Shown here: in pieces, positions 261-8,499 of the stretch | Numbering within the stretch: the stretch's first letter is position 1 | Layout of the letters: the number at the start of each line of letters is the position of its first letter | Notes under the pieces: generated by a model | The model's database searches: none | What the model saw: only the letters and a program-made list of their open reading frames with translations | Told to the model about the DNA's origin: nothing | Made by a program: the position numbers and the translations under genes | DNA from: Oscillatoria sp. Prado101 | GTDB taxonomy: Bacteria; Cyanobacteriota; Cyanobacteriia; Cyanobacteriales; Oscillatoriaceae | Direction: 5' to 3' | NCBI GenBank assembly: GCA_025454445.1 | Contig: JALOOK010000018.1 | Location: 1-16,558, forward strand | Length of the DNA stretch: 16,558 bases

Positions 261-2414
261 TTAAATTTGACCGCAGCGCTGATTGGCGGATACAGCTTCC
301 TGCATCTTTTTGGGATAGGGCAGATTGAGATTATTCATTAGCTCGATGAACTGGCTGCGATTGCGCCCCGCCAACCGGGAATTCCAGCACTTTTCTTCCC
401 CAATAGTAGACACTGTTCGCCCCTGATAATCGTGACAGGGATACACCAAAGTGTCATCCGGTAACGTGAATAACTTCTGCGTTACCGCATCATACAGCAC
501 ACCGGCATTGCCATTCTGAAAGTCAGTACGACCGCAACCCCGGATCAGCAGCGCATCGCCGGTTAACAGGTAAATGCCGTCGATAAGATAAGCATTATGG
601 CTGTCAGTATGACCCGGAGTGGCAATAGCGCGGATCTGTACGCTTCCCAGTTGCAAAATCTTCCCATCCGCCAGATAGTCATCCGCACAAGTCACCTCAG
701 TATTTTCCGGCAAAATAGCCAGACAGCCCGTAAGTGTCCTCAGCTTGTCTGTGCCGGTGATGTGGTCGGCATGGATGTGGGTTTCCAGGCAATAGTGCAG
801 AGTTAGATCCAACTCTCGCAATAGCTGGAGATCGCGTTCCACTTGTTCCAACACAGAATCGACTAGGATGGCTGCTTTGGTTGAGCAATCGGCAATCAGG
901 TAAGTGTAGGTACTCGATTCTTTATCGAAAAGTTGACGCAATAGCATAGTAGATTTATGCAACGCAAACGATAGATTTCCAGTACAGCAATCCCCCGCAA
1001 CAGGTGTATCGGGTTTGGGACTGAGGGATTTCAGCAGCTCCTGCGCAAGAGTTGCAGCCTGAACCCGAATTTCGGGAACGGCTGTAGTTTCCCAAAGATT
1101 GCCCTTGCGGGGTGTCCCCAAAGTATACAGCAGTTCCGATACCTTTCCGTCTGCATCGATTAGAGCACCGTTTGGGGCTGTGTCAATTCCGATTGACAGC
1201 TCGTTGAAGCGGATCAGCTTTTGTTCTTGCAAGCTGGCGAGCAACGGGTGCTGCAATTTGCGATAGTTAGAGTTTGAGCCGGTGCAGTTCAGAATCCGGC
1301 TGACCAACAGCACTTTCTCTGTCTGCGTCCCCCGTTCCAGAATCGTCACAGCCACCCGATTTTCCAACTCGCGACAGCTTTGAATCCGACCGGCATAAGG
1401 GTTCAGTTGACCGGACTGCACTGTCGCATCCAGCAGCAGCGCTATTTCTTCAGCAATGCGATGCCGGCATACTTCCCAGTAAGCCTTGACGTGGCGCAAA
1501 AATCGCTTTTGTTCCTGCAGTGGAAGCGCTTGCCAAACTTGTTGAGTCACTGGGCGGAGCGCGTCGATTACCGCACGCCAGTCGTGCCCTTGCGCCACCG
1601 CCGCTCGCACTTCTCGGCGCACCAGATGAAGGATTTCTCGCGAAGTTTTTGGTGCGGAATATGCGTTAATAAATGCCGGATAAGGACTTGTTTTCTTGTG
1701 ACCGGCAGGCATCAAACCGTGACGCGAGACGGCATATATTTTTCCCTGAAATCCTTTTTGGTGCAAGGCAGCGACCGCATCGGCCATCGTCAAGCCGGTG
1801 CCCACCACCAAAATAGAATCGTCTGGATTCAGACCGGCAACCGCATCAGCTTCCCAGCCATCTCTCACATAGCGAGCGCAGTTCTCCAGACCGGCAAGCG
1901 GTTCAGGCAGGGATGCTGGGAAATTTCCCAGCGCTAGCACAGCCTTTTGAACGCACAAACACTCACCGCTGCTAAGATAAACCCTGATGTCGGTTCCTGT
2001 CGTTTCCAGGGCAACCGCTTCACCCACAATCCGCTGCAACCGCACACCAGCTTGAGCGTTTGTTTCCGCTTCCTTCAGCAGTGCCCGCACGTAATCCCCA
2101 TAAACCTGGCGCGGGACGAAAGAGGATGCTGTACTTTCAGCATACCCGTTGCTTTGCAACCAGTTCAGGAAGTGAGCCGGTTCGTCCGCAAACGCACTCA
2201 TCTTCCCCGCCGGCACGTTAAGCAAATGGCAGGATATTTCCGTCCCGTAAGCCACTCCTCTGCCTACTTCCGGACTCCGCTCAATCAACTTAATCCCCAC
2301 CGGCACGGTTGCATTCCGCAAAAGATTTGCTGCAACCAGACAACCGCTAAAGCCGCCTCCAATGATAGCAATATCACCCGGAGGAATCGTCATGTTTTTG
2401 CCGCCGTCGTTCAT
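261..2414 (-). CDS. Fusion protein. N-terminal ~480 aa is a FAD/NAD(P)-binding (Rossmann GGGFSG) oxidoreductase-like domain. C-terminal ~230 aa is an ETHE1/Blh-type persulfide (sulfur) dioxygenase of the metallo-beta-lactamase fold.
   Basis: The N-terminus reads IAIIGGGFSGCLVAANLL, a dinucleotide-binding motif. The C-terminal half carries the HxHxDH metal motif (THIHADHITG) and aligns well with ETHE1-type persulfide dioxygenases (I am comparing against human ETHE1 from memory, not a search): GDALLIRGCGRTDFQNGNAGVLYDAV...LPDDTLVYPCHDYQGRTVSTIGEEK...FIELMNNLNLPYPKKMQEAVSANQRCG. The true start may be the internal Met at residue 8 (MTIPPGD...). Confidence 0.85.
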   Translation of the reverse strand: MNDGGKNMTIPPGDIAIIGGGFSGCLVAANLLRNATVPVGIKLIERSPEVGRGVAYGTEISCHLLNVPAGKMSAFADEPAHFLNWLQSNGYAESTASSFVPRQVYGDYVRALLKEAETNAQAGVRLQRIVGEAVALETTGTDIRVYLSSGECLCVQKAVLALGNFPASLPEPLAGLENCARYVRDGWEADAVAGLNPDDSILVVGTGLTMADAVAALHQKGFQGKIYAVSRHGLMPAGHKKTSPYPAFINAYSAPKTSREILHLVRREVRAAVAQGHDWRAVIDALRPVTQQVWQALPLQEQKRFLRHVKAYWEVCRHRIAEEIALLLDATVQSGQLNPYAGRIQSCRELENRVAVTILERGTQTEKVLLVSRILNCTGSNSNYRKLQHPLLASLQEQKLIRFNELSIGIDTAPNGALIDADGKVSELLYTLGTPRKGNLWETTAVPEIRVQAATLAQELLKSLSPKPDTPVAGDCCTGNLSFALHKSTMLLRQLFDKESSTYTYLIADCSTKAAILVDSVLEQVERDLQLLRELDLTLHYCLETHIHADHITGTDKLRTLTGCLAILPENTEVTCADDYLADGKILQLGSVQIRAIATPGHTDSHNAYLIDGIYLLTGDALLIRGCGRTDFQNGNAGVLYDAVTQKLFTLPDDTLVYPCHDYQGRTVSTIGEEKCWNSRLAGRNRSQFIELMNNLNLPYPKKMQEAVSANQRCGQI

Positions 2415-2654
2415 ATATCTTTCCTTAGAAAGCGCTACATCGATTTTTTCGTTTCCGTCTTTCCTCTCCCTTTCCCCGTGCGATTTGTAGACTCACCAGA
2501 AGAATCGATAATAAGACCTGTTTCTTGCCGCCGTTAGCCCAGTTAGTAAATTAAAACGAAAGCAACGCACGTGAAAACCCAGGAATTGAACGATCCAATC
2601 CCCACATAGAAAGAGCGAGTATTTTAAACTTGCAAAAGTTAACAGACTTATTTC

Positions 2655-7079: not shown

Positions 7080-8499
7080 AGTAGTATCCCACCTCCACGT
7101 TTTCCAGCACGGCTAGAGCATCATCGGTTAAGACAGCGCAGGAGAAGTACAGCGTCATCAAATAAGACGCCACCGCCTGGGTGTTGATGCCCATGAACCG
7201 CACGGAAAGGCTGGGCATTTGTTCTCCGGGAATGCCCACTTTATGCAAGCCGACAACGCCTTGTTCTTTTTCACCGGCACGCACGAGCAGGATATTCGTC
7301 TTGCCAGGACCATAGGGGTTGCCGGTGCGGTTTTGCACATCCAATTTATCGCAGGGCACAAGTGGCACGCCGCGCCAAGTTATGAAAGGAGATCCGAAAA
7401 TATTGACGGTTGCCGGTGGAACGCCCCGGCGCGTGCATTCGCGTCCGAAAGCTGCAATCGCCCGTGGGTGAGCCAGGAAGAAAGCCGGTTGTTTCCACAC
7501 GCGAGCCAGCATTTCATCTAAATCGTCGGGAGTCGGCGCACCGTAGCGGGGCTGAACGCGCATTGAGGGCGCGGCGGCGTTGAGCAAGCCAAAAGCAGGG
7601 TTGTTAATAATTTCCCATTCTTGCTGCTCTTTCATGCCTTCTACTGTCAGGCGAAGCTGTTCGCGCAACTGGTCGATCGGCTCGTTGTAAATGTCGGTGA
7701 CGCGGGTGTGAACGCGCAAAATCGTTTGGACGAGACTCAGTTCGTACTCTTGCGGTTCGCTTTCGTAGTCCACAAACGAAGCAGGTAACTCAGTTTCGCC
7801 CTCGTAGTCAGCCGCGAGCGCGACTTTTTCTTCCCCGTACAGGTTGAGGAGCGTCTTTAACCGCATGCGATTTTCCACCGCCAGCCGCAAGTTTTCCAGC
7901 ACTGTTGGGGACTGACTCACAACTTGGTCGAAGCAGCCTTTGGAAAGCGTCAGCAACCGGCAAGGGGTGAGGGTGCGAACAGTGGCGTCGCTGGGCATAT
8001 CTTGATAGAGATCGACTTCGCCGAAGTAGTCTCCCGCACCCAGAACGGCAAGGCGCAAGGGTTGGCCTTGTTCGCCCCGCACTAACACTTCTAGTTTCCC
8101 TTGCGCGACGATATAGAATTTGTCGTCTTTTTGACCTTCCGCAACGATGGTTTCTCCCATCCCAAAAGACACGCTCTGGAAGCGGTTGGCGAGCACCGCT
8201 GCGTCAGAAATAGCGATATCTGACAGCATGGGTATTGTCCGCAGGTCTTCTGGAGCGACATTCGAGTAGCCGTTGCTGTTATTGACCCGAACTTTTGGAC
8301 TTTGTTTGAGAACGACTTTGGTGCGGTTGACCCGGTACGTTCCCGATTGCACTTGAACCCAAGGCAAGAAGTGCAGCAGCCACCGGGGTGTAATCCCCGT
8401 CATTTGGGGGACGGTATTCGTCGTGACCGCTAGGTTGCGAGCAACTTGCGTGTCAATGCTTTGTTGCTGCCGGTTTAGATTTGTTGTGATTGTGACCAT
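7054..8499 (-). CDS. Family 2B-type encapsulin shell protein (HK97-fold) with an inserted cyclic-nucleotide (cNMP)-binding domain.
   Basis: 481 aa. Residues ~92-215 (nt ~7855-8226) are a classic CAP-family cNMP-binding beta-barrel, including the phosphate-binding-cassette-like FGEVDL. The rest is consistent with a Family 2 encapsulin. The gene is directly followed and overlapped by the cysteine desulfurase cargo gene, and cysE lies nearby, as is common in Family 2 encapsulin operons. I cannot verify the HK97-fold assignment without a profile search. Confidence 0.7.
   Translation of the reverse strand: MVTITTNLNRQQQSIDTQVARNLAVTTNTVPQMTGITPRWLLHFLPWVQVQSGTYRVNRTKVVLKQSPKVRVNNSNGYSNVAPEDLRTIPMLSDIAISDAAVLANRFQSVSFGMGETIVAEGQKDDKFYIVAQGKLEVLVRGEQGQPLRLAVLGAGDYFGEVDLYQDMPSDATVRTLTPCRLLTLSKGCFDQVVSQSPTVLENLRLAVENRMRLKTLLNLYGEEKVALAADYEGETELPASFVDYESEPQEYELSLVQTILRVHTRVTDIYNEPIDQLREQLRLTVEGMKEQQEWEIINNPAFGLLNAAAPSMRVQPRYGAPTPDDLDEMLARVWKQPAFFLAHPRAIAAFGRECTRRGVPPATVNIFGSPFITWRGVPLVPCDKLDVQNRTGNPYGPGKTNILLVRAGEKEQGVVGLHKVGIPGEQMPSLSVRFMGINTQAVASYLMTLYFSCAVLTDDALAVLENVEVGYYYDYQYASA

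Follow-up and report, generated by a model that had tools for sequence, protein, structure and literature searches.

Six co-oriented minus-strand genes in a contig of Oscillatoria sp. Prado101 (GCA_025454445.1, JALOOK010000018.1, positions 1 to 16,558, the whole stretch analysed here and hereafter called the window) place a desulfurase-loaded encapsulin next to a sulfur transporter and a sulfur dioxygenase. Positions 261-8499 encode, in order of transcription, the encapsulin shell (Enc), its cargo cysteine desulfurase (CyD), a serine O-acetyltransferase (SAT; here CysE), two half-size YeeE/YedE membrane proteins (YedE1 and YedE2), and a fusion of a flavin adenine dinucleotide (FAD) flavoprotein with a persulfide dioxygenase (PDO); the long open reading frames (ORFs) of the interval are all on the minus strand. 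A preliminary description of this sequence had already recognized a run of co-oriented sulfur genes downstream of the encapsulin-cargo pair, and profile searches confirmed both its layout and the gene identities. We favour, with a probability of roughly 55%, the view that this is an Oscillatoriaceae-specific cluster for sulfur limitation and zero-valent sulfur, in which two known modules (Enc-CyD-CysE and YedE1-YedE2-PDO) have been joined. The Enc-CyD-SAT operon type, the YedE1-YedE2-PDO module and every component family are already known; what is new, in that we found no description of either, is the co-localization of a YedE1E2 pair and a PDO with a CyD encapsulin, and the flavoprotein-PDO architecture.

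To examine how widely the six genes keep company, we scanned for related encapsulins (one genome per species, giving 79 loci) and searched these loci with the window proteins; the overall sample held about 13 cyanobacterial encapsulin loci and 11 loci of the fusion. The full six-gene order recurs in four other Oscillatoriaceae assemblies. Oscillatoria princeps (locus L002) has the flanks of the window, while Oscillatoriaceae M33_DOE_052 (L007) shares nucleotide homology with window positions 259-8538 only, the upper limit falling within the region upstream of the encapsulin gene, and has psaA/B upstream and an IS630-type transposase (IS630-HTH) fragment and KaiB downstream. Two further assemblies (L168 and L169), reached through the fusion protein, have the block and flanks of L007. 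Because the same order recurs in all four, the last three with different flanks, the clustering exceeds chance, and the linkage has been retained across rearrangement. Partial versions also occur. Oscillatoria sp. PCC 10802 (L001; 92-94% nucleotide identity, same flanks as the window) retains Enc-CyD-CysE-YedE1-YedE2 and cleanly lacks the fusion gene; a more distant cyanobacterium (L006, Enc 71% identical) has Enc-CyD-YedE1-YedE2 with gaps of 81 and 13 bp, no cysE, and Rrf2 and ARD-type cupin genes upstream. Enc-CyD-CysE alone is found in L004 (Enc 79%), and in a member of the Leptolyngbyaceae (L005, Enc 72%) Enc-CyD is flanked by cysK, Rrf2, TauD and a CysA-like ATPase. L004 (JBLNEP010000059.1) is labelled as an Actinomycetota metagenome-assembled genome, but its cyanobacterial-type cluster lies beside a cyanobactin PatG-type gene, and it is probably a mis-binned cyanobacterial contig.

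The shell is assigned by sequence to Family 2B rather than 2A. An internal cyclic nucleotide monophosphate (cNMP)-binding domain (PF00027, 74.6 bits, aa 110-196) is inserted in its SrpI-like HK97-fold domain (PF19307, 386.5 bits), and it scores 594.2 bits against a cut-off of 400 with the encap_f2b model NF041163; its identity to the PCC 10802 shell is 94%. The phosphate-binding cassette of the cNMP domain (FGE..PSDATVR) has Ser at the canonical phosphate-contacting Arg site (window 7993-8010, aa 164-169), a substitution common to all the cyanobacterial Family 2B CyD shells examined (L001-L008, L168, L169), and the cassette of actinobacterial relatives lacks even the GE; these shells may thus not bind a cyclic nucleotide. 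CyD scores 806.9 against a cut-off of 800 with NF041166 ('family 2A encapsulin cargo cysteine desulfurase') and 575.6 with TIGR01979 (sufS). Its disordered N-terminal loading domain (about aa 1-240) contains VESLANQFYT (aa 36) and PSFYFLSP (aa 221), which resemble the published SrpI-cargo motifs LARLANEFFS and AASPYYFLDG, and is followed by a SufS-type pyridoxal phosphate (PLP) domain in which the motif SGHKL (aa 462) holds the PLP lysine and GHHCAQP (aa 600) the catalytic Cys. Together with the adjoining shell gene, the loading motifs, PLP lysine and catalytic Cys mark CyD as a predicted encapsulin-cargo desulfurase. The Enc stop and CyD start overlap by 26 nt, and the two genes are probably translationally coupled.

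CysE has N- and C-terminal extensions and reaches equivalog level as a SAT (TIGR01172, 248.5 against a cut-off of 210.65). Its true start is likely the GTG at 4592, which is preceded by a GGAGG kept in four genomes. A SAT gene beside Enc-CyD is a standard published accessory: SAT and rhodanese genes are the most enriched accessories of encapsulin cysteine desulfurase (CD) operons, and of the Family 2A neighbourhoods surveyed in the literature, 56% plus 23% contain Hexapep genes. As regards CysE, then, the locus is not the elaboration of a minimal shell-CyD pair that had been proposed for it. Like published Family 2 CyD operons (SrpI/CyD of Synechococcus elongatus; rhodanese-SAT-Enc-CD of Acinetobacter baumannii), it has a shell gene beside CyD, both loading motifs and a SAT accessory. 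It differs in its 2B shell (the minority form, with 199 CD-cargo operons counted against 1281), in a cassette without the canonical Arg, in the lack of a rhodanese, and in the same-strand YedE1-YedE2 and PDO fusion genes that follow, neither of which is among the published enriched neighbours.

Two adjacent paralogues of about 140-160 aa with one conserved Cys each are the hallmark of the YedE1E2 type, and the two half-size proteins conform to it. YedE1 (PF04143, 32.2 bits) carries Cys100 in GCTSGHGVCG, and YedE2 (PF20398, DUF6691, 152.5 bits) carries Cys102 in GYCPGP; they are 48% and 47% identical, respectively, to the pair in the Agrobacterium blh-bigR-yedE1-yedE2 locus, with both essential Cys kept. 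YedE1E2 is reported to import zero-valent sulfur, form glutathione persulfide and cooperate with a PDO, with Cys104 and Cys101 being essential (PMC10812762), and zero-valent sulfur (S0) transport is accordingly the predicted function here. The preliminary description was thus right to see sulfur transporters, but its suggestion of thiosulfate is not upheld, as a full-length TsuA thiosulfate importer is rejected both by score (NF052577, 22.3 against a cut-off of 400) and by size (half-size proteins rather than a single chain of about 330-400 aa). The closest plasmid-borne relatives, on a plasmid of Acaryochloris S15, are 69% identical for both YedE1 and the DUF6691 protein and stand in the row metallo-beta-lactamase (MBL; PDO)-rhodanese-SulP-YedE1-DUF6691. 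Half-size pairs beside a PDO gene are also known from the BigR-regulated yeeE-yedE-pdo2 of A. baumannii, pmpAB-blhA of Serratia and blh-bigR-yedE1-yedE2-tauE of Agrobacterium, and the role of the yeeE-yedE-pdo2 operons of Acinetobacter and Serratia is sulfide detoxification (PMC7315123). In contrast to these modules, the one described here has no ArsR/BigR repressor and no TauE, its PDO is of the type I ETHE1-like rather than the rhodanese-fused Blh/CstB type and carries a flavoprotein domain of about 470 aa, and the module adjoins an encapsulin operon.

The last gene had been described as an ETHE1-like PDO fused to a FAD domain. The ETHE1-like identity stands; the FAD part occupies the N-terminal side and accounts for about two thirds of the protein's length. 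The dioxygenase part (aa 490-716) matches the Myxococcus PDO (4YSB, E 5e-77), human ETHE1 (4CHL, E 1e-62), BpPRF (5VE3, E 3e-61) and 2GCU (E 4e-59) far better than human glyoxalase II (1QH3, E 4e-18). Invariant in 25 homologues are H546xH548xD550H551, H602, D620, RGCGRTDF (625; C627) and H661, and the domain is predicted from these residues and matches to be an active type I (ETHE1-like) dioxygenase. The Blh/CstB PDO-rhodanese type was rejected, there being no rhodanese Pfam match and an NF040641 score of only 92.9 against a cut-off of 625. The architecture resembles that of CstB, BpPRF and Blh in that a PDO domain is joined to a second sulfur-related domain, but theirs is a rhodanese and the present one an N-terminal FAD/NAD(P)H flavoprotein (PF13454, aa 16-164). 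Searches of the literature turned up no description of this architecture and nothing relevant on YdhS in connection with sulfur.

The flavoprotein domain, the one new and uncharacterized part of the cluster and one specific to cyanobacteria as the N-terminal partner of a PDO, has no close solved relative by sequence in the PDB. Its best fold match is the N-oxygenase FzmM, at a sequence identity of only 20%, and its arrangement is that of the PF13454 FzmM/CreE fold, in which a helical domain separates the FAD domain from the NADPH domain. Both GxGxxG motifs are present, and an SR pair after the second suggests a preference for NADPH. The sole invariant Cys lies in an NCTG motif and there is no CxxC; a disulfide or persulfide reductase (TrxR, CoADR, Npsr, SQR) was rejected for want of a redox Cys pair and in view of the fold match. 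An FzmM/CreE-type aspartate N-oxygenase is likewise not indicated by context, since profile scans of the ten main window ORFs show no match to a lyase or a biosynthetic family: unlike FzmM and CreE, the protein has a sulfur-metabolism context and neither a nitrosuccinate-lyase partner nor a natural-product cluster.

Table 1. Predicted features of the encapsulin-sulfur cluster and its boundaries (window positions; aa, amino acids; TRF, tandem repeat search).
Feature	Position	Strand	Length and basis
Family 2B encapsulin shell (Enc)	7054-8499	-	481 aa; NF041163, PF19307, PF00027
Encapsulin cargo cysteine desulfurase (CyD)	5148-7079	-	643 aa; NF041166
Variable CyD-cysE intergenic spacer	4593-5147	.	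G/C-rich palindromic repeats and one AGAAACCNGGTTTCT palindrome
Serine O-acetyltransferase CysE	3747-4592 (maximal ORF to 4622)	-	281 aa from GTG; TIGR01172
YedE1-type half-size YeeE/YedE membrane protein	3300-3728	-	142 aa; PF04143
YedE2-type half-size partner, DUF6691	2696-3187	-	163 aa; PF20398
Flavoprotein-PDO fusion, whole gene	261-2414	-	717 aa; PF13454 N-terminal, MBL fold C-terminal
N-terminal flavoprotein domain of fusion	1029-2381	-	aa 12-462; two dinucleotide-binding domains and helical insertion, FzmM-like
C-terminal type I (ETHE1-like) PDO domain of fusion, including stop codon	261-950	-	aa 489-717
Three tandem 45-nt hairpin units, terminator-like 3' boundary	118-245	-	TRF, RNA folding
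Non-coding region upstream of encapsulin gene	8500-9035	-	no sigma-70 consensus match

Many full-length homologues of the fusion, 55-78% identical to it, occur in cyanobacteria including Nostoc, Calothrix, Scytonema, Microcystis and Leptolyngbya, and the only annotations given to them are 'hydroxyacylglutathione hydrolase' and 'FAD/NAD(P)-binding protein'. We inspected eight of their contexts outside the Oscillatoriaceae, most of which are sulfur-scavenging islands (ssu/tau/cys; sulfonate/sulfate) and not detoxification operons. A Nostoc plasmid has the row sulfonate substrate-binding protein-ssuD-ssuC-ssuB-fusion-…-arylsulfatase; in Leptolyngbya NK1-12 the fusion lies by LysR, TauD, NMT1, full-length Sulf_transp and rhodanese genes, to which Egbenema (L172) adds Rrf2, a sulfate ATP-binding cassette (ABC) transporter and TauE. 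A Crp-type regulator accompanies the fusion both in Scytonema (with a CysA-like ABC ATPase) and in Microcystis (with rhodanese and PALP genes), while in Phormidium ambiguum it is surrounded by SsuD/SsuE-like, NMT1 and ABC genes. In that genome the gene directly upstream of the fusion, at a distance of 90 bp, encodes a CysE orthologue 64% identical over its full length, unusual termini included, with no encapsulin nearby. The two remaining contexts are one without sulfur genes (Nostoc C117) and an ambiguous one (Calothrix 336/3). Among the plasmid matches listed, only those on two Nostoc plasmids are full-length, and pANL of S. elongatus is not among the 25.

When metagenomes were scanned with the fusion alignment, the matches were mainly single-domain relatives, which we used for the contexts of the separate domains only. 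Stand-alone homologues of the flavoprotein (35-45% identity) occur in proteobacteria and soil metagenomes, where their neighbours include Rrf2 regulators and TauD as well as SsuD-like monooxygenases and sulfonate-type ABC transporters. On the soil metagenome contigs L116 (548-3399) and L135 (9752-12714), an MBL-rhodanese gene (492 and 544 aa, respectively) immediately precedes such a stand-alone gene, so that the domain partnership is that of the cyanobacterial fusion, but in separate genes and in the opposite order. The pairing of flavoprotein and MBL in two architectures supports a shared pathway without revealing the reaction. Given its recurrence in sulfur-scavenging islands, the fusion is a good candidate for an unrecognized step of cyanobacterial sulfur acquisition.

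On the reading that we favour, all six genes would serve sulfur limitation and the handling of zero-valent sulfur, presumably under common regulation. In A. baumannii the CyD encapsulin stores elemental sulfur and is induced about 10-fold under sulfur limitation (PMC10836720). In the first module, CyD would likewise be packaged in the shell through its disordered N-terminal domain and turn cysteine into alanine, the zero-valent sulfur staying inside the shell, and CysE would supply O-acetylserine. In the second, the two four-helix membrane halves, with one essential Cys each, would load zero-valent sulfur onto a cytoplasmic thiol, and the ETHE1-type domain would oxidize the resulting persulfide with O2 to sulfite; the FzmM-like domain, a predicted user of NADPH, we take to work on this sulfur substrate too, either as a flavin oxygenase or as a redox partner. 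Assimilatory sulfite reductase could then reduce the sulfite for capture with the O-acetylserine made by CysE, while the encapsulin would buffer cysteine-derived sulfur as S0. For the mobilization of sulfur stored in desulfurase encapsulins a co-encoded rhodanese has been suggested (PMC10836720). The Oscillatoriaceae clusters have no rhodanese and instead a predicted zero-valent-sulfur transporter pair and a PDO, which points to an alternative and testable link between the compartment and zero-valent sulfur.

Several observations weigh against an integrated cluster. A comparison with other Family 2 neighbourhoods, which the preliminary description had called for, found the linkage conserved in one cyanobacterial family, so that the refuting outcome named there, a lack of conserved linkage, did not arise. 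Beyond cyanobacteria, however, no YedE or PDO gene lies within 10 kb of any of the roughly 66 Family 2 CyD loci sampled (actinobacterial, Bacteroidota, Chloroflexota and other); the same is true of the Family 2A-type loci of Moorena and Calothrix, and only two of all these loci have cysE. The linkage is therefore confined to a small cyanobacterial clade, and as both flank contexts come from a single family, the full block has been observed independently only a few times. Conversely, none of the eight fusion contexts outside the Oscillatoriaceae has an encapsulin nearby (or, for that matter, a half-size YedE pair). Loss of the PDO part has happened on at least two occasions. In PCC 10802 (L001 15391-15401) a clean deletion of about 2.6 kb, equivalent to window positions 158-2748 and with one breakpoint within the tandem hairpin array, removed the fusion gene completely, together with the final ~17 codons of yedE2, and L006 retains, between the Rrf2 regulator and encapsulin genes, a two-piece PDO relic (9086-9287, minus strand; a 44-aa N-terminal and a 19-aa C-terminal piece, E 7.5e-11 and 5.8e-4) from which the middle is gone. 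Since the gene is deleted in the nearest sequenced strain and a mere relic in L006, the PDO is dispensable beside the encapsulin. More than one transcription unit is also likely. The cysE-yedE1 and yedE1-yedE2 gaps measure 18 and 112 bp, but those between CyD and cysE (about 525-555 bp, ~555 bp with the likely GTG start) and between yedE2 and the fusion (281 bp) are long and filled with repeats that vary between strains, suggesting several units. Finally, an FzmM-like fold says nothing of the substrate.

Much of this evidence would suit a chance or purely historical association. Enc-CyD-CysE would then act in sulfur storage and starvation, YedE1-YedE2-(FAD)PDO would be a unit of its own for the detoxification of reactive sulfur or sulfide as in BigR operons, and shared descent or an island-like insertion would have made them neighbours in one family. 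The long and variable gaps between the modules, the persistence of Enc-CyD where the PDO gene is gone (PCC 10802) or decayed (L006), the lack of linkage in every other Family 2 locus sampled, and the occurrence of the fusion mostly elsewhere are all as expected of independent modules; so is the known detoxification role of yeeE-yedE-pdo2 (PMC7315123), and an IS630-type transposase fragment lies beside the block in L007, L168 and L169. We nevertheless regard this explanation as doubtful, though the most serious competitor. The identical gene order is kept in two flank contexts, and in L006 YedE1-YedE2 follows CyD after only 81 bp with no intervening cysE, as in an operon. Moreover, a CysE orthologue adjoins the fusion in P. 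ambiguum in the absence of the other cluster genes, and the cluster has no BigR/ArsR, sulfide:quinone oxidoreductase (SQR) or TauE partner, the usual neighbours of the fusion being scavenging rather than detoxification genes.

A more specific proposal, which we think improbable, is that YedE1E2 and the fusion are the missing route that fills or draws on the encapsulin S0 store, with the FzmM-like domain as a sulfur oxygenase that depends on NADPH and O2. Under this proposal that domain might, for example, make a thiol sulfenate that captures sulfide as persulfide. If so, the fused dioxygenase would be fed without an SQR, and stored or imported S0 would become assimilable sulfite.

Least probable is the self-contained pathway of the preliminary description, in which thiosulfate or other sulfur is imported, cysteine is made and broken, persulfide is generated by the cargo and its excess is burned by the dioxygenase: all six annotations do fit sulfur metabolism and full-length YeeE relatives do import thiosulfate (though with a weak TsuA match here, of 22 bits), but Pfam and NCBIfam profile scans of the window found no cysK, no rhodanese, TusA or SufE sulfur acceptor and no regulator to complete it, the half-size pair is of a type reported to carry zero-valent sulfur (PMC10812762), the persulfide of CyD would arise inside a shell that, in the system studied, retains S0 (PMC10836720) and leave no obvious cytosolic substrate pool for the PDO, the fusion is found elsewhere in ssu/tau/cys scavenging islands, and the nearest strain has no PDO gene at all.

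The cluster appears to be bracketed by two related repeat arrays. One directly follows the fusion stop codon (118-245; TRF period 45, 2.9 copies, 97% matches) and folds as RNA at -86.1 kcal/mol, with a z of -8.7 relative to shuffled sequences; the other, of related 42-45-nt units, directly follows the stop of a vault-protein gene at 9036-9202. The units of both consist of a GGGGUGGG...CCCCACCC hairpin and then a U-rich run, and the arrays look like stacked terminators, at the 3' end of the cluster and ahead of its upstream region. A sigma-70 consensus scan of positions 1-9300 returned no site against 5.5 expected and is uninformative on transcription units. Searching the whole window against Rfam (E <= 1) gave no riboswitch, only sub-threshold microRNA-type matches on palindromic repeats, and no tRNAs were found in the window.

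The CyD-cysE spacer differs in length and content among the window, L001, L002 and L007, with only the last ~30 nt, including the GGAGG, being kept. G/C-rich palindromic repeats of the CCCCTCTCCCACAAGGGGAGAGGGG type occur in this spacer (4909-5118) as well as at 12613-12647 and 15755-15789, and explain the differences in spacer length from strain to strain. The perfect palindrome AGAAACCNGGTTTCT is present in three copies (at 3214, 3232 and 4848, spanning 3214-3246 and 4848-4862) against 0.09 expected. A role as shared operator was rejected, as the copies in L001 and L002 lie mostly elsewhere, outside the cluster, and L007 has none; the palindrome behaves as a small mobile or dispersed repeat.

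Regulatory genes were seen at several related loci. In L005 (8032-9445) and L006 (7880-9080), genes for an Rrf2-family regulator and an ARD-type cupin stand divergently just upstream of the encapsulin, and Rrf2 genes also lie beside stand-alone flavoprotein homologues (L108, L129) and beside the fusion in Egbenema. It may be Rrf2 that regulates this gene set locally; the window has no Rrf2 gene. L006 also has a CsoR/CstR-type repressor gene (16843-17190) about 2.4 kb downstream.

Directly upstream of the encapsulin gene is a gene for a major vault protein homologue (888 aa; 9226-11892, minus strand) in which every type of vault repeat is present, as is the shoulder domain. Homologues of this protein have been described from bacteria, cyanobacteria included (bioRxiv 10.1101/872010). 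Two different shell-forming proteins are thus encoded in adjacent genes, an adjacency seen only in the closest relatives (L001-L003). Between the vault-protein gene and a pentapeptide-repeat gene, positions 12108-12414 hold nested inverted repeats (32-nt arms 243 nt apart, and a 32-nt hairpin at 12199-12270); this block, which gave spurious sub-threshold microRNA matches in Rfam, resembles a miniature inverted-repeat element.

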